64,000 nt of DNA from an uncultured Verrucomicrobiae bacterium (GTDB lineage Bacteria; Verrucomicrobiota; Verrucomicrobiia; Chthoniobacterales; UBA10450), in assembly GCA_963726745.1 (NCBI GenBank), contig CAVSDR010000006.1:800001-864000 (forward strand), in the 5' to 3' direction. The position numbers were made by a program, and so were the translations under genes. This document shows positions 6,524-27,124 of the stretch, one piece after another. The notes under the pieces are model-generated. The model was given only the letters and a program-made list of their open reading frames with translations. It had not been told where the DNA came from and searched no databases. Within the stretch, counting starts at the first letter, position 1; each line of letters begins with the position of its first letter.

Positions 6524-7557
6524 GTGAAAATCGCACTCGATGCCATGGGCGGCGATTTCGGGCCGCCCAATCTCGTGGGCGGCGCGGTCATGGCCCTGCG
6601 GGAATACCCGCGCATCGACCAGCTCTTCCTCGTGGGCGATACCGCGCAGATCGAGGGCGAACTGAAAAAGCTCGGCTGCAATGATCGCCGGATCGAGATC
6701 GTCCATTCCACCCAGGTGGTCGAGATGTCGGACAAAGCGGTCGAGTCCGTCCGCCGCAAGAAAGATTCCTCGATCAGCCGCGCCGTTGATCTGGTGAAAC
6801 AAAAGCAGGCCGAGGCCGTGGTCAGCGCCGGGCCACACCGGTGCCGCCGTGGCCGCGACCACGATCAAACTTCGCACCCTCCCAGGCGTGGAACGCCCGG
6901 GCATTGCCTCGATCATTCCTACGGAGAGCAACCTTTTCGTGCTCATCGACGCCGGCGCGAACGTCGATCCCCGCCCGATGCATCTCCTGCAATACGGCAT
7001 CATGGGCTCGGTTTATTCGCGCCATGTCCTTGGCTACAAAACGCCGTCTATCGGGCTGATGTCGATCGGCGAAGAGGACGTGAAAGGGAGCGATTTCACC
7101 AAGGAAGTCTTCAAGATGCTCAAGCAGAGCGCGCTGAATTTTCGCGGCAACATCGAGGGGCACGATCTTTTCGCGCACCCGGTTGAGGTCGTCGTATGCG
7201 ACGGCTTTGTCGGCAACGTCATCCTCAAAACCTGCGAGTCGGTGGGCGACGCGATCTTCAAATGGCTCAAGCACGAGCTGACGAAAAACAAGATCCGCAT
7301 GGCCGGCGCGTACCTCGCGCAGTCGGCCTTCAAGACCATCCGCAAAAAAGTGAACTACGAGGAATACGGCGGCTCGCCGCTTGCTGGGCGTGAACGGCAT
7401 TTGCATCATCGCGCACGGCGCGAGCACGCCGCTGGCGATCAAGAATGCGCTCCGCGTTGCGGCCGAGTCGATTGAACACGAAGTGAACCCGCATATCGTC
7501 GAGGAGATTCGCCGCTACCATGAAACGACAGCCCCGCTCGAGCCCGCGCTCCGCTAG
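6524..7557 (+). CDS. plsX: Phosphate acyltransferase PlsX (frameshifts near 6830 and 7383)
   Basis: 'IALDAMGGDFGP', 'RTLPGVERPGIA', 'DAGAN', 'VCDGFVGN', then 'GVNGICIIAHGAS' in a third frame; rpmF-plsX-fabH order. Confidence 0.95.
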
Positions 7558-8545
7558 ACCCGGGCGCTCCGTTTCGATCGTCGGCACCGGCTCTTACGTC
7601 CCGGAGCGGATTCTTTCGAACGAAGACCTCTCGAAAATCGTCGACACGACCGACGAGTGGATCACCACCCGCACCGGGATCAAACAGCGCCGCATCGCCG
7701 CGGCCGACGAACAGACGAGCGACATGGCCACGAAGGCTGCGCTCGCCGCGATGGAGCAGGCCGGCGTGACCGCGGGCGAGATCGATCTCATCCTCGTGGC
7801 CACGGCCACGCCGGACATGATGTTTCCCGCGACCGCTTGCTTCGTGCAGGCGAAAATCGGCGCGAAGAAAGCCGCCTGCCTCGATGTCTCCGCGGCTTGC
7901 GCGGGCTTCCTTTTTGCCGTCGAGATCGGGCAGCAATTCATCACCTCGCACACCTACGACACCGTGCTCGTGATCGGCGCGGAGAAGCTCAGCTCGATCA
8001 CGAATTGGACTGATCGGAACACCTGCGTGCTCTTCGGCGACGGCGCCGGTGCGGTCATTCTGCGCCACCGCGATGCCAGCAGCCACGGCGTGATCAGCAC
8101 TCACATCGGGAGCGACGGAAATTTTGCCGACATTCTCTACATGCCGGGTGGCGGCAGCCGCACCCCGCTGACCGCGGAGAACGTGGGCGACAACCTGCAG
8201 ACGATCCACATGTCCGGGAAGGACGTCTACAAGCAGGCGGTCATCTCCATGCTCGCGGCCGCGAACAAGGCGCTCGAGACCGCCGGTCTAACGACCGATG
8301 ACATCGCCTGCGTGATTCCGCACCAGGCGAACCTGCGCATCATCGAGGCCATCGGTGAACGGCTCAAAATTCCCAAGGACCGCGTCTTCGTGAACGTGGA
8401 CAAATACGGGAACACTTCCGCCGCGGCGGTGGCGATTGCGCTCGATGAGGCAAATCGCAGCGGCCGGATCAAACAGGGCGATTACGTCTTGCTGATTGTT
8501 TTTGGCGGCGGGCTCACCTGGGCCAGCAGCGTGATGGAGTGGTAG
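7520..8545 (+). CDS. fabH: Beta-ketoacyl-ACP synthase III
   Basis: 'AACAGF', 'PHQANLRII', 'YGNTSAA', 'FGGGLTW'. Confidence 0.97.
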   Translation: MKRQPRSSPRSARPGRSVSIVGTGSYVPERILSNEDLSKIVDTTDEWITTRTGIKQRRIAAADEQTSDMATKAALAAMEQAGVTAGEIDLILVATATPDMMFPATACFVQAKIGAKKAACLDVSAACAGFLFAVEIGQQFITSHTYDTVLVIGAEKLSSITNWTDRNTCVLFGDGAGAVILRHRDASSHGVISTHIGSDGNFADILYMPGGGSRTPLTAENVGDNLQTIHMSGKDVYKQAVISMLAAANKALETAGLTTDDIACVIPHQANLRIIEAIGERLKIPKDRVFVNVDKYGNTSAAAVAIALDEANRSGRIKQGDYVLLIVFGGGLTWASSVMEW

Positions 8546-8574
8546 CGCCGCTCCGTTGCGCGCCGCCCTCGCGT

Positions 8575-8913
8575 CTAACGAAGATGCGCCGACTTCTCCG
8601 CCAGGTCTTTTTCCAGCCGCGCGCACATCAGGTCACAGAGCTCCATGATCTGCGGATCGGAGATGAAGTAGAAGGCGTTCACGCCCTGCTTTCTCCGGTC
8701 GACCATTCCCACCTCCATGAGGATGCCGAGATGCTTCGAGACGTTCCCCTGGCTCAGGCCGGTGAGGCCCACAAGCGCGGTGACGTTTTGCTCGCCCTGT
8801 TCAAGCGCAACCAGGAGTGCCAGGCGCGCCGGTTCGCTTAAAACCTGGAAGCGCCGCGCGACCATTTGCAGGCCGCGGGCCGAGAGGCGCGGTTTACTGG
8901 ATTTTCGGGGCAT
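8575..8913 (-). CDS. ArsR/SmtB family repressor
   Basis: 'FQVLSEPARLALL...NVTALVGLTGLSQGNVSKHLGIL...RRKQG'; C-terminal 'LCDLMC'; divergent from sulfur operon. Confidence 0.9.
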   Translation of the reverse strand: MPRKSSKPRLSARGLQMVARRFQVLSEPARLALLVALEQGEQNVTALVGLTGLSQGNVSKHLGILMEVGMVDRRKQGVNAFYFISDPQIMELCDLMCARLEKDLAEKSAHLR

Positions 8914-8940
8914 GACAAAAGAAGACGGCCGGTTTATACT

Positions 8941-8958
8941 ACTATATCGATATATAGT
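8941..8958. promoter_or_regulatory. Inverted-repeat operator ACTATAT-CGAT-ATATAGT
   Basis: Perfect 7-4-7 inverted repeat in the AT-rich 81-bp gap between arsR and the operon. Confidence 0.7.
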
Positions 8959-8994
8959 CGAGGAACGGCCGCCCGTCCTTCCATTCACCAACCC

Positions 8995-9258
8995 ATGAAA
9001 CTTGTAAATCTTTCGGCCCATTACCCGCTGATCACGGCGCTTCTCCTTGGAGCCCTCCTCGGGGCGGCGCTGGGCTACTTCGGCCAGTGCACTTCCGGCA
9101 CCTGCCCACTCACTTCCACTTGGTGGCGCGGCGCGCTTTATGGCGCCTTTCTCGGCGTCCTCTTTGGGTTGAGTTCGGAGCGTCGACCGGCGGCGAAGGT
9201 CGAATCAGGCAAGGACAGAAACCCGTCACGTGGCGAGGTGGCCGACTCCTCTCGTTAG
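8995..9258 (+). CDS. Small membrane protein, DUF6132-like (CxxGTCP motif)
   Basis: Two hydrophobic helices flanking 'GQCTSGTCPLTS'. Confidence 0.7.
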   Translation: MKLVNLSAHYPLITALLLGALLGAALGYFGQCTSGTCPLTSTWWRGALYGAFLGVLFGLSSERRPAAKVESGKDRNPSRGEVADSSR

Positions 9259-9341
9259 CCGCAAAAAGACCTTTTCAACTCAACAAAATAGACAGCGCGC
9301 TCAGCGGGAAACGCCAACCGCGCAAACGAAATCAACACCTC

Positions 9342-10746
9342 ATGTCACTCATCTTTGAACGCATCCAAACCGACGGCATCGCCGAGCTTTCCTATCTCGT
9401 GGGCGACGACAGCGAGGGCGTTGCGGCCGTCTTCGATCCGACACCGGACGTCGACAAATATCTCGAGCTGGCGCGGGAGAATAATCTCTCGATCACGCAC
9501 ATCTTCGAGACGCATATCCACGCCGATCTCGTGAGCGGTGCGCGGGAACTTTGCGCGCGGGTCGATTCGGCCAAAATCTTCGCCAGCCACGAGGGCGAGG
9601 CGCGTTACGGCTTCGACACCGAGAAGGTGAAGGACGGCGACACCTTCACGCTCGGCAGCACGGTCATCACCGCGCGGCACACGCCCGGGCACACGCCGGA
9701 GCACATGAGCTACGAGTTGGCCGAGAAGGAGCGGAAGGAGAAACCGTGGGGCGTGCTCACGGGCGATTCGCTTTTCGTCAGCTCGGCCGGGCGGCCTGAT
9801 CTGCTCGGCTCAAGCGAATCGGAGAAGCTGGCCAAGCAGCAATTTCACACCTTGCGCGATTACTTCCTCGAGCTGCCGGACAGCGTCATGATCCATCCCG
9901 CGCACGGCGCCGGCTCGCCCTGCGGCGCGGACATTGGCGACCGCCTCGTGAGCACGATCGGCTACGAGCGGACGACGAATCCCTTCCTCCAGTTCGACGA
10001 CGTGAAGGAGTTCACGCACTACGCGCTCAGCACCGCGCCGCCGGTCCCGACTTATTACCCGCGGATGAAAAAGGTGAACGCGAAAGGCCCCGAGATCATC
10101 GGCAATCTCCCGCGCGTGCCGGGCCTGCCGCCGAAGGCGTTCAAGGAAGCGATCGCGGAGAAGGAGAACGTCCTGATCGACACGCGCACGATGCTCGGCT
10201 TTGGCGGCGGACACATCCCCGGCGCGCTCAACATCGGCGGCTCGCCCATGCTTTCGATCTGGGCCGGCTGGCTGCTCGACCCGGAAAAGCCGGTCCTGCT
10301 CGTGCTCGAGAAAGACAGCGCGCTCGAGGACGTGGTCCGCTATTTCATCCGCACCGGTTACACGAAGTTTGCCGGCTATTTGGTCGGCGGGATGAAGTCG
10401 TGGGACAACGCCGGCTTCGAGATCGCGCGCGTCCCGCAGATGAGCGTGCACGAGGTCAATGCGGCCGCCGAGGGCGAGCTGCAGATCTTCGACGTGCGCA
10501 CGCCGGACGAATGGAAAGGCGGCCACATCCCCGGCGCGCATCATCTTTTCCTGCCGGAGATTCGCGAGAAAGTCGGCGCCGTTCGACAAGACGAAACCGA
10601 CCGCGGTCTATTGCGACAGCGGCTACCGCGCGAGCATCGCCACGAGCATGCTGAAGCAGGAAGGCTTCACCGATGTGCGCAATATCCCGGGTAGCTGGCA
10701 GGCCTGGAAGAAGGCCGGCTTCGAAGTGGAAGGAAAGATCTCATGA
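9342..10746 (+). CDS. MBL-fold persulfide dioxygenase-rhodanese fusion, CstB-like (frameshift near 10578)
   Basis: 'ETHIHADLVSG', 'TPGHTPEH', 'TGDSLF', 'HGAGSPCG'; two rhodanese domains, last with 'YCDSGYRAS' in shifted frame. Confidence 0.88.
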
Positions 10747-11333
10747 TGACCCGACTCCTCGTCCTCTTTCTCGTCACCGCGCCGTCGCTCGCTTTTGCGG
10801 CGGAGCCGAAAGTGAACGCGCTCCAGTTCTCCGGCCCGGCCTGGTCGCCCTATCTCGTCGGCGCGGGCATCGGCGTGCTCAGTTGGTTCACCTTTTACTT
10901 CGCGAACAAGCCAATCGGCGCCTCGTCCTTCTACGCGACCGTCGCGGGCGGCATCGGCCGGCTCTTCGCGCGCAAGCACACCGACTCGCTCGAGTATTAC
11001 AAAGACAACCCGCCCAAGCTCGGCTGGGAAACGGTGCTCGTGCTCGCGACAATCGCGGGCGCGTTCATCTCTGCGAAAACAGGCAGCGAGTTCACCGGCG
11101 AATGGCTCCCGCCGTTTTGGGTCGCGCGTTTCGGCGAGCAATCCTTCGCGCTCCACGCCGCTCTCGGCCTCGCCGGCGGCGTCCTGATGGCGTTCGGCGC
11201 GCGTTTCGCCGGCGGCTGCACCAGCGGCCACGGCATCAGCGGCGCGCTTCAGCTCAACCTCGGCTCGTGGATCGCCGTCATCTGTTTCTTCATCGGCGGC
11301 ATCGCCGTCGCCTACCCGCTTTACCTCTTATGA
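10743..11333 (+). CDS. YeeE/YedE family sulfur-compound transporter subunit
   Basis: 'WSPYLVGAGIG', 'GARFAGGCTSGHGISG'. Confidence 0.9.
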   Translation: MMTRLLVLFLVTAPSLAFAAEPKVNALQFSGPAWSPYLVGAGIGVLSWFTFYFANKPIGASSFYATVAGGIGRLFARKHTDSLEYYKDNPPKLGWETVLVLATIAGAFISAKTGSEFTGEWLPPFWVARFGEQSFALHAALGLAGGVLMAFGARFAGGCTSGHGISGALQLNLGSWIAVICFFIGGIAVAYPLYLL

Positions 11334-11916
11334 TCGACCCCGGTTCTGCCGTGAAAAAAGGGAGCGAAAAACCCGAGGCCGCGATCGCCCCGCCGGCCAA
11401 GCTCTTCCTCGCGCTCGTCGCCGGTCTCGCCTTCGGTTTCCTTCTGCAAAAGGGCGGCGCGGCCAAGTTCAACATCCTCATCGGCCAGCTCCTCCTCCAG
11501 GATTGGACCGTCGCGAAGATCATGCTCAGCGCGATCGTCGTCGGCATGCTCGGCATCTACCCGCTGCACGCGGCGGCGAAGGTGAACCTCCACCTGAAAC
11601 CGACCCGCCTCGGGCCGCAGATCATCGGCGGGCTCGTCTTCGGCGCCGGCTTCGCACTCATCGGCTACTGCCCCGGCACCGCCGCGGCCGCGCTCGGCCA
11701 GGGAAACTTCGACGCGCTCTTCGGCATGACCGGCCTCGTCATCGGCTCCTATCTTTACGCGGAATCTCCGGCTGGCTGAAGCGGATGGACTGGAAAGACC
11801 TCGGCAAAGTCACCCTGCCCGACACGATCAAGGTCGCGCGCCTCCCCTTTGCCCTCGGCTTCGCGGTTCTCCTCATCGGCGTTCTCTTCGCGCTCGAAAA
11901 GCTGACCATTCGTTAG
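11330..11916 (+). CDS. Second YeeE/YedE family subunit (frameshift near 11765)
   Basis: 'FGFLLQKGG', 'GGLVFGAGFALIGYCPGT'; C-terminus 'GWLKRMDWKDLGKVTLP' in another frame. Confidence 0.88.
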
Positions 11917-11924
11917 GCAGCGAG

Positions 11925-12683
11925 ATGGCACTCGCGCTGGCATTGGCGGTCTTGATCGGGCTCTCGCTCGCGCTTCTCGGCGGCGGCGGATCGATTATCA
12001 CCGTGCCGGTGCTGGTCTATGCGGCCGGGCAAACGCCGCAGGAAGCGGTCCCGATGTCGCTCGCGATTGTCGGCGCGGTCAGTTTGCTCGGGACATTGCA
12101 GAAAGCACGTGCCGGCCTTGTGCATTGGAAAGCGGTCTGGGCCTTTGGCGGCGCCGGGGTTCTCGGCGCGGCGCTGGGCGCGCAAGGAACCGCGCTGGTT
12201 TCGTCGCGCGTCCTCATGCTCATCTTCGCCGCGCTCATGCTCGGCGTGGCCGTGAACATGTGGCGCCGCCCGCACGACCTCAAAAAGCGCGATGCCGAGT
12301 GTCATGTCGGCCGCTGTCTCGCGGCTGGGTTTGCCGTCGGCGCGCTCACCGGATTCCTTGGCGTCGGCGGCGGTTTTCTGCTCGTCCCTGCGCTCGCTTA
12401 TTTCGCGCTCCTGACCACGCCGATGGCGGTCGGCACTTCGCTCGCCATCATTGCGATCAACTCGATCGGCGGCCTGCTCGGCCACTGGAGCGCCGCCGAA
12501 GGACAATGGACCCGGATCGCTTGGTTCCTCCTCGCCGCCGTCGCCGGCATGATCATTGGCCTGCCCTTGGCCGGACGGATTTCTCCGCGGCAGTTGAATC
12601 GCGCCTTCGCGGTCTTCGTCGTGCTCGTGGCCCTCTTCGTTATCGGCCAGACGCTGCTCCATCCGCAGGCCGCACAATTTTAA
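11925..12683 (+). CDS. TauE/SafE sulfite exporter family protein
   Basis: 'LLGGGGSIITVPVL', 'GFLGVGGGFLLVPAL', 'AVGTSL'. Confidence 0.92.
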   Translation: MALALALAVLIGLSLALLGGGGSIITVPVLVYAAGQTPQEAVPMSLAIVGAVSLLGTLQKARAGLVHWKAVWAFGGAGVLGAALGAQGTALVSSRVLMLIFAALMLGVAVNMWRRPHDLKKRDAECHVGRCLAAGFAVGALTGFLGVGGGFLLVPALAYFALLTTPMAVGTSLAIIAINSIGGLLGHWSAAEGQWTRIAWFLLAAVAGMIIGLPLAGRISPRQLNRAFAVFVVLVALFVIGQTLLHPQAAQF

Positions 12684-12703
12684 ACCACGAACCGAAAGGA
12701 CCC

Positions 12704-13147
12704 ATGAAAGACCTGAAGAAATTAAACGACCGCATCACCATCGGCGGCCAGCCGAGCGCGAGTGAGATCGAGGAACTAAAGCGCGACGGCTTCCGCACGA
12801 TCGTGAACCTGCGAACCGAAGGCGAAGACGACCAGCCGTTGAGCCCGGACGAGGAAGGGAAAGCGGTCGAGGCGGCCGGGATGAAGTATGTCCACTTCCC
12901 GGTTTCGAGCGCGACGATGACCCCGGAGATGGTCGATCAGTTCCGCGAGAAATTGCCGAAACTGGACGGCCCGGTCCTGGTGCATTGCCACGCCGGCATG
13001 CGCGCAGGCGCCTTCACCATGATGGCGACCGCGGTCGAGGAAGACTGGAGCGGCGAAGAAACCCTCGCGAAGGCGGAGGCGATGGGCTTCAAGTGCGAAG
13101 CGCCGCAGCTCCGGCAGTTCGTCAGCAGCTACGTCGATAATCATTGA
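12704..13147 (+). CDS. DUF442/Blh-like PTP-fold sulfur transferase
   Basis: 'IGGQPS', 'GFRTIVNLRTEGE', CX5R loop 'HCHAGMRA'. Confidence 0.85.
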   Translation: MKDLKKLNDRITIGGQPSASEIEELKRDGFRTIVNLRTEGEDDQPLSPDEEGKAVEAAGMKYVHFPVSSATMTPEMVDQFREKLPKLDGPVLVHCHAGMRAGAFTMMATAVEEDWSGEETLAKAEAMGFKCEAPQLRQFVSSYVDNH

Positions 13148-14688
13148 GCGTGGCAACTTGTCATGCGCTGGTGCTTCGCTGCTCTCCTTTCGTTCCTTTG
13201 CTCGCGATGAGTGTGCAGGGCGAGCCGCGGCGCATCGTGCTCCTGCACACGAACGACATCCACGGGCACATCACCGCGTGGCGCGGCTGGGAAGGTGAGC
13301 TCGCCGGCAAATCAGTCGGCGGGTTCGACCGGCTCGCGGCCGCGGTAGAAAAAGAACGCGCGCAGGCCGGCGCCGACCGCGTCCTCCTGCTGGACGCGGG
13401 CGATGCGATCGGCGACACCATGCTGGCCGACCTGACGCAAGGTGCGGCAGTGCTCGAGTGCATGGCGGCGCTCGGTTACGACGCGATGACGCTCGGCAAT
13501 CACGAGCCCGACTTCGGCGTGGCGACGCTGCGCCGTTACCTCGGGGAAGGGAAAGTGCCGATGCTGGCCGCGAACGTCCGCGAGAACGGCGGGAACTTCG
13601 CCACGCAATTTCAAATCAAGGAGGTCGGTGGCGTAAAGGTCGGCTTGCTCGGGCTGGCCTATCCGAACACGCCGCTCACGACCGCACCGAAGAACGTCGA
13701 AGGCCTGGCGTGGGAAGCGGATTCCGCGGCGGTCGTGCGCCGGCTCGTGCCGAAAATGCGCGCGCAAGGCGCGGAGCTCATCGTCGTCCTCTCGCATCTC
13801 GGCCTCGGCGCGGATAAGACACTCGCCGAAGCCGTCCCGGAAATAGACGTCATCGTCGGCGGTCACAGTCACAACCGCATGGAGCGCGCGCTCGCAGTTG
13901 GCTCGACCTTGATCGTGCAAGCCGGTGCGCATCTTTCCGACCTCGGCGTGCTCGAGCTCGCGGTGGAAGCCGGCCAGGTGACCGCGCACCAGCGGCGACT
14001 TATCCCGCTCACAGGCCCGGCCGATCCCGCCATGACCGCGCGGATCGCCAAAATCCGGAAGCCTTTCGCGGCCCAGCTCGATGAGTCGTTAGGCGAGGCC
14101 GCCGAGCCGATCGTCCGCGCGCAAACTCTCGCGGGGACGGACGCGCGTCAGCGCGACGAGCAATCGCCGGCTGACTCGCTCTTTGCCGACATCCTCCGCG
14201 CGAAAACAGGGAGCGAAATCGCGCTCCTGCCCGGCGTCGGCTACGGGGTAGCCATTCCGGCCGGACCGATCACCGCTGAGATGCTGCGCAACCTCGTGCC
14301 GCACGACGGCAAGGTTGTGACCATGACGCTGACCGGCGCGCAGATCCGCGAGATTCTGCAGCAGGCAGTCGAGAACAGCTACAGCAACGACCCGCAGCGG
14401 AAGGTCGGCGGGATGATCCAGGTGAGCGGCCTGCGCTTCACCCACGACGAGAAACGCGTGCTCGAGGATTCGTTAGACCCGAGCCGCACCTATCGCGTCG
14501 CGACCAACTCCATGCTCGCGCAAGGCGGCCATCGTTACCGCACGTTCCGCGACGGCGGCGACCGCGCCGAGCAGGGCGGACAATTTCAAACGATCGCTGA
14601 TTGGATCAAAACCGAGAAAAGAGTGAACGCGCCCACCGATGAACGCATCTCACGAAAGACCGCCGGAGCTCCCGCCCCGCAAAAATAA
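13144..14688 (+). CDS. Secreted 5'-nucleotidase/SoxB-superfamily dimetal hydrolase (true start probably ATG 13163 with an indel near 13198)
   Basis: 'HTNDIHG', 'DAGD', 'GNHE', 'SHLG', 'GGHSH'; SoxB-like C-terminal segment; ATG 13163 gives signal-like MRWCFAALLSFL. Confidence 0.85.
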   Translation: MSVATCHALVLRCSPFVPLLAMSVQGEPRRIVLLHTNDIHGHITAWRGWEGELAGKSVGGFDRLAAAVEKERAQAGADRVLLLDAGDAIGDTMLADLTQGAAVLECMAALGYDAMTLGNHEPDFGVATLRRYLGEGKVPMLAANVRENGGNFATQFQIKEVGGVKVGLLGLAYPNTPLTTAPKNVEGLAWEADSAAVVRRLVPKMRAQGAELIVVLSHLGLGADKTLAEAVPEIDVIVGGHSHNRMERALAVGSTLIVQAGAHLSDLGVLELAVEAGQVTAHQRRLIPLTGPADPAMTARIAKIRKPFAAQLDESLGEAAEPIVRAQTLAGTDARQRDEQSPADSLFADILRAKTGSEIALLPGVGYGVAIPAGPITAEMLRNLVPHDGKVVTMTLTGAQIREILQQAVENSYSNDPQRKVGGMIQVSGLRFTHDEKRVLEDSLDPSRTYRVATNSMLAQGGHRYRTFRDGGDRAEQGGQFQTIADWIKTEKRVNAPTDERISRKTAGAPAPQK

Positions 14689-14692
14689 CCTT

Positions 14693-15271
14693 ATGAAATC
14701 GAAAAACATCGCCCTCGTTGTCTTCGCCGTCGGGCTCGGCGTCCTCACCTGGCGCTCGAGCAACGCCTCCTCCGGCGGCGCCTGCTTCGCCCGCCTCTTC
14801 CCCACCTCTTCGCAGGTGCGCCCGATCGCGAACACCGAGGGCGCCGGAAAAGCCGCGCCCGCCTTCGAGTTGAAGGATCTCGAGGGCAAAACGGTCAAGC
14901 TCTCGGACTTCAAGGGGAAGGTCGTGCTCCTGAATTTCTGGGCCACCTGGTGCCCGCCCTGCCGCGAGGAGATCCCCGACCTCGTCGCTTTGCAGAACGA
15001 ATACAAAGACAAGGGCCTGGTCGTGCTCGGGGTCTCGTTAGACCAAAACGGACCCGCGCAGGTGAAGTCGTTTGTCAGCCGGATGAAGATCAACTACCCG
15101 GTAGTCATCGGGGACGAGAAGATGGCCATGAGCTACGGCAGCATCCAGGCGATCCCGACGACCTTTTACATTGATCGTGCCGGCAAAATCGCCGGCATGC
15201 ACGAAGGCGGCGCGGACAAGGAAATGTTTGAGCAGGCCGTGAAACCACTCCTCGAAAAACCAAGCGCCTAA
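14693..15271 (+). CDS. TlpA-family thiol-disulfide oxidoreductase
   Basis: N-terminal anchor; 'LNFWATWCPPCREEIP'; 'IPTTFYID'. Confidence 0.92.
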   Translation: MKSKNIALVVFAVGLGVLTWRSSNASSGGACFARLFPTSSQVRPIANTEGAGKAAPAFELKDLEGKTVKLSDFKGKVVLLNFWATWCPPCREEIPDLVALQNEYKDKGLVVLGVSLDQNGPAQVKSFVSRMKINYPVVIGDEKMAMSYGSIQAIPTTFYIDRAGKIAGMHEGGADKEMFEQAVKPLLEKPSA

Positions 15272-15273
15272 CC

Positions 15274-15696
15274 ATGAAAAACCTACTCGCATTTGCCCTT
15301 CTCGCCTTCATGAGCTCCAGCCCACTCGCCGCCGCCGAAATCGCGAAACACCGTGTCCTCTTCGAGGTCACGATGGGCGGCGAAGAGCAGTGGACCGGCG
15401 TGCTGAACAACGTGAAGAACGTCCGAGCCGCGCTCGGCGCCGAGTCCACCGAGGTCTTCGTGGTCGCGCACAGCAACGGCCTCGGCCTGCTCCTGCAAAA
15501 GGAAAACAAATTAGCCGACCGGATCAAGGAACTCGCTGGCGAAGGCGTTATCTTTGCCGCCTGCGAGAACACGATGAAGAAGAAAAACGTGACCAAGGCC
15601 GACCTCCTGCCGGCCGCGACCACGGTCGATTCGGGCGTGGCCGAGGTGGTGCGGAAACAGGAAGCCGGCTGGAGTTACCTCAAGTCGGGGAGCTGA
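15274..15696 (+). CDS. Secreted DsrE-family protein
   Basis: Signal peptide; 'VVAHSNGL', 'FAACENTM', 'SGVAEVVRKQEAGWSYLK'. Confidence 0.85.
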   Translation: MKNLLAFALLAFMSSSPLAAAEIAKHRVLFEVTMGGEEQWTGVLNNVKNVRAALGAESTEVFVVAHSNGLGLLLQKENKLADRIKELAGEGVIFAACENTMKKKNVTKADLLPAATTVDSGVAEVVRKQEAGWSYLKSGS

Positions 15697-15709
15697 GCTA
15701 GCTGCCTGC

Positions 15710-17137
15710 ATGGCGCAGAAGACAATCGCGATTCTCGGCGGTGGCTCGGCGGGACTGACGGCAGCGCGGACCGCGCGGGAATTCGGCGCGCGCGTGCTGC
15801 TTTTTCTCGGCCGTCGCGGCGCGGCGGCTTCGCTTTGCATCGAACGCGGCTGCATGCCGTCGAAAGCGATGTTCGAGCCGATCGACGCGATGCACCACGC
15901 GAAGCGGCACGGCTGGCTCGAGGTGCACCCGCGGGAGCCGGAGCAATTCCTCGCCCAGATCGTGGCTTGGAAAGATCGCGAGATCGATCGCTTCCGTTGC
16001 TTCCGCGAGGAGGAACTGGAGCGGCTGCACTGTCCCGACTTCCAAATCATCCCGCGCGACGCGCGTTTCAATGGTCCTAACGAAGTGGACGACGGCGAAC
16101 AGCGGTATCGTTTCGACGCGGCCATCATCGCCACCGGCTCGGCGAATTCGATCCCAGCGGAAGTGCATGTGCCGATCGGCCCGGACGGCGTCTGGACAAA
16201 CAGCGAGATCCTCGCGAACACGAAGCTTCCGCGCACGCTCGCGGTCATCGGCGGCGGACCGATCGCGCTCGAGTTTTCGCTCCGCTACGCGCGGCTCGGC
16301 TGCGCGGTCACGATTCTTTCGCGTTCGAAGTTGCTGTCTAAATTTCCCGCGAAATTCGGCGAGCGTCTTCAGCAAATTTACGAACGTGAAGGCTTGCGCA
16401 TCCTGACGGGACACAATCTCCTGGCGCTGGATCGCGCGGAGAATGGCAACTTTTCCGTGCGCACGAAAAGCGCCGCGGCCGGCGAGGAAACGTTCACCGC
16501 GGAGCGCGTTCTCCTCGCCACCGGGCGGCATCCGATTCTCGAAACGCTGAACCTTGGTGCGGTCGGCATCGAGCCGGGCAAGCACGGCAAGCTCGAGGTC
16601 GACGACGATATGCGCGTGCGCGGCCAACGGCACATCTTCGCCGCAGGCGACGTGGCCGGCCTACGCATGGTGGTGCACCAGGCGCACATCGAAGCCGGCA
16701 TCGCGGCCGAGAACGCAGTGAAAGAAAGCGATCGCCGATGGGAGCGGCGCTCAAACATTCAGGTGGTTTTTTCCGATCCCGAATTTGCCTTCGCCGGGAT
16801 GAGCCGCGAAACCGCCGAGAAGAAAGGCCTGGCCGTCGCCACCGCGGAAGGGGAGAGCGCCGATGTCGGCAAGCTGCACCTCGCGGGCGACGATCTCGGC
16901 TTCGGCGAATTTGTCGCCGACCGGGAGAGCGGCCGCCTCCTCGGCGCGGGCCTGCTTTGCAGCGACGCGGCCAATCTCATCCACCTGCCAGCCTACGCGA
17001 TCGACCACGAGCACACGGTCCACCAGCTCGTCACCGGCGAATATTATCACCCGACGAAAACTGAGATTGTCTCGGAAATAGGCGACGCTCTCTGCCGCGA
17101 GCTCGGCGGCACGCCCTTCTGCCGGGCGGGCGAGTAG
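15710..17137 (+). CDS. Class-I pyridine nucleotide-disulfide oxidoreductase (dihydrolipoamide dehydrogenase/MerA-like)
   Basis: 'GGGSAG', redox disulfide 'CIERGCMPSK', 'GGGPIALE', 'FAAGD', 'YHPT..E'. Confidence 0.88.
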   Translation: MAQKTIAILGGGSAGLTAARTAREFGARVLLFLGRRGAAASLCIERGCMPSKAMFEPIDAMHHAKRHGWLEVHPREPEQFLAQIVAWKDREIDRFRCFREEELERLHCPDFQIIPRDARFNGPNEVDDGEQRYRFDAAIIATGSANSIPAEVHVPIGPDGVWTNSEILANTKLPRTLAVIGGGPIALEFSLRYARLGCAVTILSRSKLLSKFPAKFGERLQQIYEREGLRILTGHNLLALDRAENGNFSVRTKSAAAGEETFTAERVLLATGRHPILETLNLGAVGIEPGKHGKLEVDDDMRVRGQRHIFAAGDVAGLRMVVHQAHIEAGIAAENAVKESDRRWERRSNIQVVFSDPEFAFAGMSRETAEKKGLAVATAEGESADVGKLHLAGDDLGFGEFVADRESGRLLGAGLLCSDAANLIHLPAYAIDHEHTVHQLVTGEYYHPTKTEIVSEIGDALCRELGGTPFCRAGE

Positions 17138-17183
17138 ACGGCGCGCAGTTGCCGCCGGCGAGCTTTGCCGCGATGGATGCCGC

Positions 17184-18044
17184 ATGCTGATCGAAACGCA
17201 CGCGCATCTCGATTATCCGGATTTCGCCCCGGACTTTGACGACGTTCTCCAGCGCGCAGCCGACGCCGGCGTGACGCGGATGATCACCATCGGCACTTCG
17301 CTCGCGAGCAGCCGGCGCGCGGTCGAGCTGGCGGAAACACACGACCACATCTACGCGGTCATCGGCGTGCATCCGACGGCGGAGGACGAGACCGCGGAGG
17401 ACGTGATCACCCCTCTGCGCGAGCTGGCGCAAAGCCCGCGGGTGGTCGCGATCGGCGAGACCGGTTTGGATTACCATCGGCTCCCGAGCGTGGAGGCGGC
17501 CAAGGCGAAGAGCGTGCAGGTGGCGCACGCGTTGCAAGGCGAGACCGACGCGGACATCGAGGCCGGCTTGCATGATGGCGCTTACAAGTCGCGGCAGGCG
17601 AGTTTGTTTGAGCAACAGCTTGATCTCGCGGTCGAGCTGCGGCTGAACGTGGTCATCCACCAGCGCGATGCCTGGGAAGATACGCTGGCGATTTTGCGGC
17701 CTTACGGCCGGCAGCTCAGCGGCGTCTTCCATTGCTTCGGCGGGACGCGGGCGCAGGCCGAGGAAGTGATTGCGCTGGGCCACCTGGTTTCCTTCACTGG
17801 GATCGTGACCTTCAAGAACGGCCAGCAGGTGCGCGAGGTCGCGGCCCAGCTCTCGTTAGGCGAATTTATGGTCGAGACCGATTGCCCGTATCTCGCGCCG
17901 GTGCCTTTTCGCGGGAAGCGCTGCGAGCCGGCGCATACCCGGCTGGTCGCGGAGACGATCGCGCAAGCGCGCGGGATTTCGCTCGAGGAAGTGGCGCGCG
18001 CGACCACCGCGACCGCGGAGGAATTTTTCCGATTCAATCGATGA
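17184..18044 (+). CDS. tatD: TatD family hydrolase
   Basis: 'ETHAHL', 'GETGLDY', 'HCF', 'ETDCPYLAP'. Confidence 0.93.
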   Translation: MLIETHAHLDYPDFAPDFDDVLQRAADAGVTRMITIGTSLASSRRAVELAETHDHIYAVIGVHPTAEDETAEDVITPLRELAQSPRVVAIGETGLDYHRLPSVEAAKAKSVQVAHALQGETDADIEAGLHDGAYKSRQASLFEQQLDLAVELRLNVVIHQRDAWEDTLAILRPYGRQLSGVFHCFGGTRAQAEEVIALGHLVSFTGIVTFKNGQQVREVAAQLSLGEFMVETDCPYLAPVPFRGKRCEPAHTRLVAETIAQARGISLEEVARATTATAEEFFRFNR

Positions 18045-23907: not shown

Positions 23908-24031
23908 TAGTAAAAACAACTTTTAAGAGCTGAGTCTGAAATATGCGGCCAGGAGGTAAGATGCCTGGCCTGCGAGAGTTTCAGTTATCATAAAGATCTC
24001 TGGTCCGGCATTCGCCGGATCGGAACAGATT

Positions 24032-26888
<2,857 letters not shown>

Positions 26889-27124
26889 ATTTACTTTTCA
26901 ATTAACCCGTCGCTTCGTCTGCAAGGACGGAGCGGCGGTAAATTGAGGGGAATGACTTAAAATAAAACGAAGCCTTGAAAATTGCGGACACTGTCCCTGT
27001 ATGTAGATATCAGAGAATCAGCACACACTGGTTCTTTAGGAAAATGACCTGGTTAGATCACCAGAGATTCGGAGTCGAAGGCTCCTCCCCCGCCTGGGGT
27101 TGGATGCAAGAGACGGCTCGGCCC

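Follow-up and report, generated by a model that had tools for sequence, protein, structure and literature searches.

A ten-gene operon joining a persulfide-handling core to an exported SoxB-related hydrolase module in an uncultured verrucomicrobium

What can a heterotrophic bacterium without recognisable Sox or SQR genes do with ten co-oriented genes for sulfur handling? The question is raised by a block at positions 8575 to 17137 of a stretch of 64,000 nucleotides (the window) from an uncultured Verrucomicrobiae bacterium of the order Chthoniobacterales (GenBank assembly GCA_963726745.1, contig CAVSDR010000006.1). An earlier note on this DNA had placed ten genes and a divergent ArsR gene between fabH and tatD, and domain searches and open reading frames (ORFs) found all of them where it had put them. 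The gene families it had named (DUF6132, dioxygenase-rhodanese, a YeeE pair, TauE, DUF442, TlpA, DsrE and a flavin reductase) were likewise recovered by domain searches; its 'SoxB-like' hydrolase held good by ancestry and failed for the SoxB active-site motifs. The block consists of two separable modules, a core of the known BigR/Cst kind and an optional exported add-on. Our reading, held with about even confidence, is that the operon joins the known-type sulfane-sulfur core to an exported module whose hydrolase would release sulfate from tetrathionate or related polythionates.

The identity of the hydrolase was analysed by profile scores and motifs. Its best NCBIfam match was the SoxB model TIGR04486, at 236 bits where the cut-off demands 550; two further members of the family scored 231 and 244 bits, a true SoxB in another locus (L053) scored 779 bits, and the UshA model gave the window protein 130 bits against a cut-off of 600. 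The dimetal ligands were invariant or nearly so in 107 aligned rows. The motif comparison revealed SHWEW and PAVRWG in Thermus SoxB versus GNHEP and PGVGYG in the window protein, and GNHEPD was present in the full-length rows of its clade. The H-W-E of SoxB and the arginine of its P-x-[FV]-R-W-G motif are presumably the catalytic positions. PG[VL]GYG, PH[DE], KVGG and GGH of the C-domain were conserved through the clade, and the window protein reads PGVGYG, PHDG and MLAQGGHRY where nucleotidases have N-x-G-G-I-R, P-F-x-N and F-x3-GGDG, which we take to be the substrate-binding motifs of the 5'-nucleotidase C-domain. Most distant nucleotidases kept the usual C-domain motifs; the nucleotide-binding positions differ in the window clade. 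Signal or twin-arginine leaders were recognised by eye. By these defining features the protein is neither SoxB nor an ordinary 5'-nucleotidase.

The phylogenetic position was in accordance with an origin on the SoxB side. In two maximum-likelihood trees the hydrolase formed its own branch with Pontibacter and Salinibacter proteins, which sided with SoxB and two clades carrying the motif GNWE. This grouping stood apart from 22 and 16 ordinary nucleotidases with an SH-like approximate likelihood ratio test (SH-aLRT) support of 99 in two models. Support in these quick IQ-TREE runs, which covered 56 and 40 selected rows, is by SH-aLRT and not by bootstrap or approximately unbiased (AU) test; the root is an assumed one, with the sequences returned by the scan as outgroup. 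The predicted structure, with a predicted local distance difference test (pLDDT) score of 95.8, was aligned to SoxB (PDB 2wdc) with Z 39.9 and a root-mean-square deviation of 2.3 over 462 residues. The best PDB matches by sequence and by fold were 5'-nucleotidases, and the fold does not discriminate, as the model resembles nucleotidases and SoxB about equally.

In this genome the window clade provides the sole SoxB-related hydrolase found, and GNWE paralogues occur in about 11 of 47 host genomes. The two GNWE clades, one exported (NGFRF) and one apparently cytoplasmic and leaderless ([HN]GWRYG), both keep the SoxB arginine and tryptophan. Their genes (L027:8230-9837, L042:11398-13074, L046:12136-13584, L048:7425-9176 and 11499-12953, L050:9558-11006, L126) are often found beside the window-type enzyme, and all three clades are present in L048 and on plasmid Paks1 of Pontibacter akesuensis. 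A metagenome scan with a GNWE paralogue gave no match. For the window hydrolase at least 691 clusters at E <= 1e-60 were counted among the candidates scored, a cut that may take in neighbouring clades. In one verrucomicrobial genome an IS4/5-family transposase breaks the hydrolase gene (L037:8482-11290), and a second DsrE-hydrolase cluster is present there.

The genomic surroundings of the hydrolase were analysed in the best 80 of 217 confirmed loci, split into 42 close and 38 distant ones; a partial close homologue (L089) and a locus with a sister sub-branch motif (L091) were regrouped from distant to close after the data had been inspected, the control before being 2 of 40. At least one of dioxygenase, YeeE and DsrE lay nearby in 35 of the 42 close loci versus none of the 38 distant nucleotidase loci. 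The dioxygenase was present in 29 close loci, DsrE in 27 and YeeE in 23, and DsrE was accompanied by dioxygenase or YeeE in 23. The hosts come from seven phylum-level groups, namely Planctomycetota, Verrucomicrobiota, betaproteobacteria, Acidobacteriota, Nitrospirota, a deltaproteobacterium and Gemmatimonadota; many are kin, and the counts are not independent. ArsR (11 loci), TauE (9), DUF442 (7) and DUF6132 (5) were less frequent. The co-occurrence elsewhere that the earlier note had expected for the hydrolase, DsrE, TlpA and reductase genes with dioxygenase and YeeE was seen across phyla for hydrolase and DsrE and fell short for the other two: TlpA was found in 10 of the 42 loci (two weak) and a related flavin reductase in six, one of them distant and on the opposite strand and the other five verrucomicrobial.

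Seven close loci had none of the three genes; a different DsrE-family gene was near the hydrolase in two of them, a second SoxB-like gene was present in two, and in one the hydrolase was immediately followed by tsdBA-like genes, with a true soxB 5 kb further on. Other DsrE-family genes lay near the hydrolase in L038 and L043. A TsdA homologue adjoined the hydrolase cluster in L053 and L056, coming after DsrE in the latter, and further neighbours were SQR upstream (L091), sulfite-oxidase-family genes (L065, with a homologue in L063) and a reductase-rhodanese gene (L061). TlpA and hydrolase were fused in 4 of 120 listed homologues (P0068, P0071, P0100, P0106). An exported DsrE relative, 34% identical, was found between soxZ and soxA of a canonical sox cluster. 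Related clusters with SoxB-like hydrolase, DsrE, TlpA, YeeE and dioxygenase are carried on plasmids of cultured Pontibacter, Hymenobacter, Sphingobium, Novosphingobium and Bradyrhizobium, and Salinibacter has hydrolase, DsrE and TlpA together. The idea that DsrE and SoxY exclude each other, suggested by six SoxY-positive genomes without adjacent DsrE, was rejected, since DsrE homologues turned up at other places in five of these genomes and in two a further DsrE-family gene lies close to the hydrolase.

The core was found to be separable from the exported module within the genus. The dioxygenase (at least 61% identity, some copies partial) was present in 20 of 33 same-genus genomes and the hydrolase branch in 5 of 33, and in two genomes they lay on different contigs, which contradicts the single fixed operon unit of the earlier note. 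These tallies, like those given below for sulfite reductase and for the fabH-tatD distance, include the unpublished genomes G001, G008 and G030; the first and third are two of the 20 dioxygenase carriers, and the hydrolase is in none of the three. The nearest structures of the dioxygenase were 3tp9 and 3r2u, the latter agreeing with CstB numbering when an intact orthologue of 466 amino acids, 90% identical (L036), was aligned. In CstB numbering the His2Asp triad, G198, the C201-G202 loop, F148, R154, R370, C408 and R413 were kept, and K203, L205 and Q13 were replaced by A, I and E; of these positions F148 and L205 are given as invariant for the CstB type. Full-length dioxygenase ORFs from the loci had the Cys-loop in 20 of 21 and the rhodanese motif in 20 of 21; in the window gene the rhodanese Cys falls in the shifted frame.

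CstB is reported to convert any persulfide to thiosulfate without release of sulfite (bioRxiv 10.64898/2026.02.20.707092), and because the CstB Cys-loop is kept, the window enzyme likely also makes thiosulfate rather than sulfite. The cytoplasmic oxidation to sulfite of the earlier note has to be replaced by a route in which sulfite would need the DUF442 step. The use of any persulfide fits a host without GshB or BshC. The two adjacent YeeE subunits, each with one conserved Cys, match PmpAB/YedE1E2, with about 195 amino acids versus the 130 quoted for the type; PmpAB-type two-subunit YeeE has been described (PMC11582611), and YedE1E2 is reported to bring in the zero-valent sulfur on which a dioxygenase then acts (PMC10812762). 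DUF442 is reported to move sulfane sulfur from thiosulfate to a thiol, releasing sulfite (PMC5823870; bioRxiv 10.1101/2023.12.18.572138). Taken alone, and by analogy with these relatives, the core would very probably serve persulfide detoxification as proposed.

The remaining sulfur genes of the host were then considered. In the assembly, 3.41 Mb in 7 contigs (the window is on contig C6) and 94.7% complete, no match was found to SoxY, SoxA/TsdA or SQR/FccB, which bears out the earlier note on the missing SQR and SoxYZ/AX, and none to a sulfite reductase (NIR_SIR domain), GshB or BshC. The genome carries CysDN and DsbD; two genes have a molybdopterin oxidoreductase domain, one of a short 213-aa type, and DoxD-like matches were weak only. 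The 13 verrucomicrobial hosts examined, this genome included and many of them incomplete, gave no SoxY, SoxA/TsdA or SQR match, SoxY was above cut-off in 6 of 46 other host genomes, and a SoxA/TsdA domain was present in 12 of 47 host genomes. No sulfite reductase domain was detected in any of 24 same-genus genomes, against 14 of 16 genomes from elsewhere in the order, many of these genomes being incomplete. Owing to this difference, the genus likely depends on reduced sulfur.

The nearest described route is that of the marine bacterium Erythrobacter flavus 21-3, in which knockouts have shown a pathway of TsdA, SoxB-like protein and dioxygenase without SoxYZ/AX (PMC7608252). Its cluster is reported to be thiosulfate-induced and to hold three SoxB-like genes annotated as 5'-nucleotidases, one of them required for tetrathionate use; tetrathionate is converted to sulfate and zero-valent sulfur, followed by the dioxygenase (PMC7608252). 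The present host resembles that strain as a heterotroph without Sox complex or SQR in which a SoxB-like gene, a metallo-beta-lactamase (MBL) dioxygenase-rhodanese and a thiol:disulfide protein are clustered. It differs in having no TsdA/TsdB and one SoxB-related gene instead of three, and in having DsrE and YeeE, neither mentioned in the main or supplement text on E. flavus (PMC7608252). SoxB-dependent, SoxYZ-independent tetrathionate oxidation has also been described in a Pusillimonas preprint (10.1101/708438). The route that the earlier note thought possibly undescribed is therefore already in print in a SoxYZ/AX-free form, and the core resembles the BigR/PmpAB operons, which the note had not named. 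In our assessment the block would work like a BigR/Cst-type core to which the lower half of the E. flavus pathway has been attached. Its novel aspects are a changed active site, DsrE as a constant companion of the hydrolase, and hosts in which neither TsdA nor sulfite reductase was found.

The following mechanism is proposed. Outside the cell a polythionate would react with the single Cys of exported DsrE, the hydrolase would strip sulfate from the DsrE-bound polythionate, and the leftover sulfane sulfur would enter through the PmpAB/YedE1E2 pair, while TlpA would reset the thiols, likely supplied with reductant by the DsbD of the genome. In the cytoplasm persulfides would be converted to thiosulfate by the CstB-type dioxygenase, for which no glutathione is needed; DUF442 would split the thiosulfate to a new persulfide and sulfite, and TauE would export the sulfite. 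Any excess of persulfides or disulfides would be reduced by the flavin reductase. The present analysis itself shows the genes and their conserved residues, the place of the hydrolase in the trees, the linkage across phyla and the lack of Sox, SQR and TsdA genes. Characterised relatives supply the steps assigned to the dioxygenase, YedE1E2, DUF442 and TauE; we infer on what the hydrolase and the reductase act, that DsrE is a carrier and that ArsR is the repressor. Precedents for the exported steps are an archaeal DsrE3A that reacts with tetrathionate to a Cys-S-thiosulfonate (PMC4175335) and the reported hydrolysis of trithionate by SoxB with release of sulfate (PMC5336275). The predicted sulfur-carrying cysteines of the block proteins were each nearly or fully invariant in the aligned rows; DsrE has a leader, and its single Cys was present in 32 of 32 rows and invariant across 82. 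A bolder form of the proposal, tentative and rather doubtful as a whole, is that exported MTH1491-type DsrE replaces SoxYZ as covalent carrier of sulfur, that the His-retaining sister of SoxB hydrolyses DsrE-S-thiosulfonate with a chemistry of the active site unlike that of SoxB, and that soil Verrucomicrobiota and Planctomycetota thereby use the polythionates of others.

Several points weigh against polythionate hydrolysis by this enzyme. The protein has no SoxB motifs GHWE and PG[FV]RWG and retains the nucleotidase-type GNHE; its model is slightly nearer to a 5'-nucleotidase than to SoxB (Z 42.9 versus 39.9; template modelling score 0.86 versus 0.87); and a first FastTree analysis, with a single SoxB, supported its grouping with SoxB only weakly (72), the root being assumed. 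The window DsrE belongs to a different subfamily from archaeal DsrE3A. A host without TsdA or SoxAX to make the substrate would be reliant on outside polythionates. Two of the three SoxB-like paralogues of E. flavus are reported to have been deleted without effect (PMC7608252), the essential D0Y83_01365 was not assigned to one of the three clades, and four published primer halves matched none of seven plasmid loci.

Among the alternatives, the one that survives best, though we regard it as unlikely, is that the core detoxifies persulfides and the hydrolase is an accessory phosphoesterase or sulfoesterase (for S-sulfocysteine or thiophosphate, for example), like the dispensable E. flavus paralogues (PMC7608252). 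The retained dimetal ligands and nucleotidase-type His of GNHE, the absent SoxB Trp and Arg, and the 5'-nucleotidases that lead the PDB matches all agree with such a role. It is countered by the genes that regularly lie next to it, for sulfur carriers, TsdA, SQR and sulfite oxidases. Moreover, no other SoxB-related hydrolase was found in the genome and GNWE paralogues were found in a minority of hosts, so that the enzyme is usually not a helper of another SoxB-like one.

A second alternative, judged a little less credible, is sulfur nutrition instead of detoxification, in a lineage taken to be incapable of sulfate reduction, in which the exported module and YeeE would scavenge sulfane sulfur, the reductase would form sulfide for cysteine and the dioxygenase would burn the overflow. 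It shares most of its chemistry with the polythionate proposal and differs in purpose and net flux. The absence of the NIR_SIR sulfite reductase from this genome and its genus speaks for it, as do the sole PAPS-reductase-family match, which is CysD next to CysN, the flavin reductase linked in verrucomicrobial loci only, and the full-length YeeE of E. coli, which is reported to serve thiosulfate assimilation (PMC11582611). Set against these, the two-subunit YedE1E2 is reported to be linked to dioxygenase-coupled oxidation and not to assimilation (PMC10812762), the reductase link is weak since its carriers are kin, and a hydrolase branch found in so few same-genus genomes is dispensable for growth.

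Frameshifts had to be considered before the operon was taken as functional, as three of its ten genes (the dioxygenase, the second YeeE subunit and the signal peptide of the hydrolase) are out of frame here (Table 1). At least 15 frame switches affect 12 of 70 orthologous genes in the genome background, at least 0.17 per kb, for which reason the block frameshifts are probably assembly errors and broken genes of this assembly are not to be read as pseudogenes. The extra base at the site in the second YeeE subunit is present in three relatives and two unrelated soil contigs. Two DNA sequencing runs yielded no more than scattered fragments of relatives. Split genes were also observed in plsX (window 6524-7475) and in lpd and ndh (contig C3; L106, L110). 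The view that the operon is decaying and the block an inactive remnant, to which the three frameshifts would point, is very improbable: the housekeeping plsX, lpd and ndh are broken in like manner, 0.17 per kb predicts about 1.4 switches in the block so that three are not unusual (Poisson about 0.18), the catalytic residues are intact, and relatives hold intact orthologues that are 77-90% identical.

The features of the block are collected in Table 1. The ten co-oriented genes are spaced by -4 to 83 nucleotides, and the divergent ArsR may repress them, the palindrome behind the predicted promoter being likely its operator as judged from sequence. Both Cys of the ArsR CxxxC were present in 14 of 14 aligned rows, the window's row included, and boxes resembling the promoter were seen in five aligned relatives. 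When a palindrome pattern was built from the alignment of the five relatives and run over 156 loci, its 6 hits were the source sites themselves, a result that is circular for those five, and the other 150 loci gave none. For the flavoprotein, identification as MerA, dihydrolipoamide dehydrogenase, RclA or glutathione reductase was rejected, all scores being below cut-off, and no C-terminal Cys-Cys pair is present.

Table 1. Features of the sulfur block, by position in the window
Feature	Position	Strand	Basis
ArsR/SmtB repressor with C-terminal CxxxC (LCDLMC), without N-terminal BigR-type Cys	8575..8913	-	PF01022 and NF033788 above cut-off; BigR model 42 bits vs cut-off 155
Predicted sigma-70-type promoter of the ten-gene operon, ATGACA-17-TATACT	8912..8940	+	top of 3 sites; shuffles 1.0 +/- 1.1
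Palindrome TATATCGATATA directly after the -10 box, likely ArsR operator	8943..8954	.	one copy in genome; kept in 5 aligned relatives
DUF6132 small membrane protein, C-x4-C	8995..9258	+	PF19628, E 7e-27; Cys in 7/7 rows
CstB-type persulfide dioxygenase-pseudorhodanese-rhodanese, one-base frameshift near 10572	9342..10746	+	domains, motif alignment; L036 orthologue
Short YeeE/YedE subunit (GGCTSGH), PmpAB/YedE1E2 type	10743..11333	+	PF04143; Cys in 32/32 filled rows
Second short YeeE/YedE subunit (GYCPG), one-base frameshift near 11764	11330..11916	+	PF04143, PF20398; Cys in 33/33 filled rows
TauE/SafE exporter	11925..12683	+	PF01925, E 3e-46
DUF442 (Rhd442) sulfurtransferase, HCHAGMR, without signal peptide	12704..13147	+	PF04273; TIGR01244 73 bits vs cut-off 86; both Cys in 8/8 rows
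Exported dimetal hydrolase beside SoxB (GNHEPD, PGVGYG), signal peptide out of frame near 13195	13163..14688	+	profile scores, trees, model
Membrane-anchored TlpA/ResA-type thioredoxin, WCPPC	14693..15271	+	domain search
Exported DsrE, MTH1491 type, single Cys (ACENT)	15274..15696	+	PF02635; PDB 1l1s, E 9e-18
Cytoplasmic class I flavin disulfide reductase (CIERGC, HPTKTE)	15710..17137	+	under cut-off of every named family

Comparison with characterised systems placed the block outside SoxB, cst and bigR by their defining features. With the bigR-blh operon of Xylella and Agrobacterium and the PmpAB/YedE1E2 clusters it shares ArsR, DUF442, dioxygenase, TauE and the YeeE/YedE pair (PMC5823870, PMC10812762, PMC11582611); it departs from bigR-blh in having DUF442 as a protein of its own, where bigR/PigS-type operons have a DUF442-ETHE1 fusion, a CstB-type dioxygenase in place of the ETHE1-type Blh, a regulator with a C-terminal CxxxC instead of the Cys42/Cys108 of BigR, and the exported hydrolase-DsrE-TlpA module in addition. 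The scores were in agreement with this, the Blh model giving 83 and 29 bits against a cut-off of 625 and the BigR model also remaining under its cut-off (Table 1). With the Staphylococcus aureus cst operon it shares the three-domain dioxygenase with CstB residues and TauE (bioRxiv 10.64898/2026.02.20.707092); it differs in having ArsR instead of CstR, no CstA in the block, no SQR in the genome, and the YeeE pair and exported module in addition. As in Sox, the hydrolase is exported, has the fold and dimetal site of Thermus SoxB (2wdc/4uwq; PMC5336275), is accompanied by a TlpA-type thioredoxin and stands with an exported DsrE related to the one in a sox cluster; unlike Sox, it is below the SoxB cut-off, has GNHE and PGVGYG in place of GHWE and PG[FV]RWG, and comes without SoxY in all but a few hosts (6 of 46 others, 0 of 13 verrucomicrobial). 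In the literature covered, with most subscription journals outside that coverage, no study of this hydrolase clade or its DsrE partner was found, and none of the papers that one of the literature searches gave mentions DUF6132 or Chthoniobacterales.

Recurrent neighbours at the other loci were also recorded. A dihaem MauG/peroxidase-like cytochrome was near the hydrolase in L031, L049, L052, L054, L055, L058:266-1651 and L089, directly upstream in three, and it could be the oxidant in place of SoxAX or TsdA. On the Salinibacter plasmid pSR116 (L127) the sister hydrolase and DsrE have as neighbours genes for phosphosulfolactate synthase and MmgE/PrpD, a hint that they may be connected with the disposal of sulfite or with sulfonates. 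Four further proteins were met repeatedly in sulfur clusters of different phyla (L021, L022, L027, L029, L032, L033, L036, L039, L041, L042, L060, L063, L157, L158), namely DUF2243, DUF202, a small exported protein with CPxC and a YgaP-like membrane protein with GWCPP, which suggests that they act in sulfur handling.

The site of the block was analysed in related genomes. In the window fabH (end 8545) and tatD (start 17184) enclose the minus-strand ArsR gene and the ten plus-strand genes. Their distance was at most 150 nucleotides in 4 of 8 same-genus genomes with both genes on one contig and about 400 nucleotides or less in five genomes from other families; because the two genes are so close in these genomes, the block is a true insertion. 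One relative (L035) has a block at the identical site, and other same-genus genomes have related clusters at other sites. Inserts of about 1, 2, 7.5 and 10 kb were seen at this junction in several same-genus genomes (window 8545-17184; G002, G012, G015, G022), and it is likely an insertion hot spot. The G+C content of the block matches that of the genome; at window 24001-27000 it is 51-53% versus about 63% in the surroundings, possibly a recent insertion. The 7-mer TCGTTAG/CTAACGA, with 2025 copies genome-wide (about ten times the order-3 Markov expectation) and 29 in window 1099-58957, occurs seven times in the block (8575, 9252, 11910, 14086, 14470, 15035, 16077) against 5.1 expected at the genome rate and 0.49 by the order-3 Markov model. 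This density is consistent with an old insertion, and to that extent the long residence suggested in the earlier note stands, while the same-genus clusters at other sites and related ones on plasmids tell against it. The density of the 7-mer in relatives was 9-11 copies per 21 kb in L036, L039, L041 and L042, 4 in L045 and 0 in L035.

SoxYZ-independent use of polythionates is known genetically from E. flavus and Pusillimonas, and the present block offers the Cys of DsrE as a candidate carrier, together with a hydrolase clade that is widespread, combines features of two kinds of active site and is currently annotated mostly as 5'-nucleotidase. If polythionate hydrolysis by this module is true, the hydrolase branch would be an intermediate between nucleotidases and SoxB, and surveys based on soxB and sqr would undercount sulfur turnover by soil and freshwater heterotrophs. 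If DsrE is in addition the carrier, the module would represent a cross-feeding branch of the soil sulfur cycle, overlooked by soxB markers, in hosts without TsdA, SQR or Sox and, in this genus, also without sulfite reductase.

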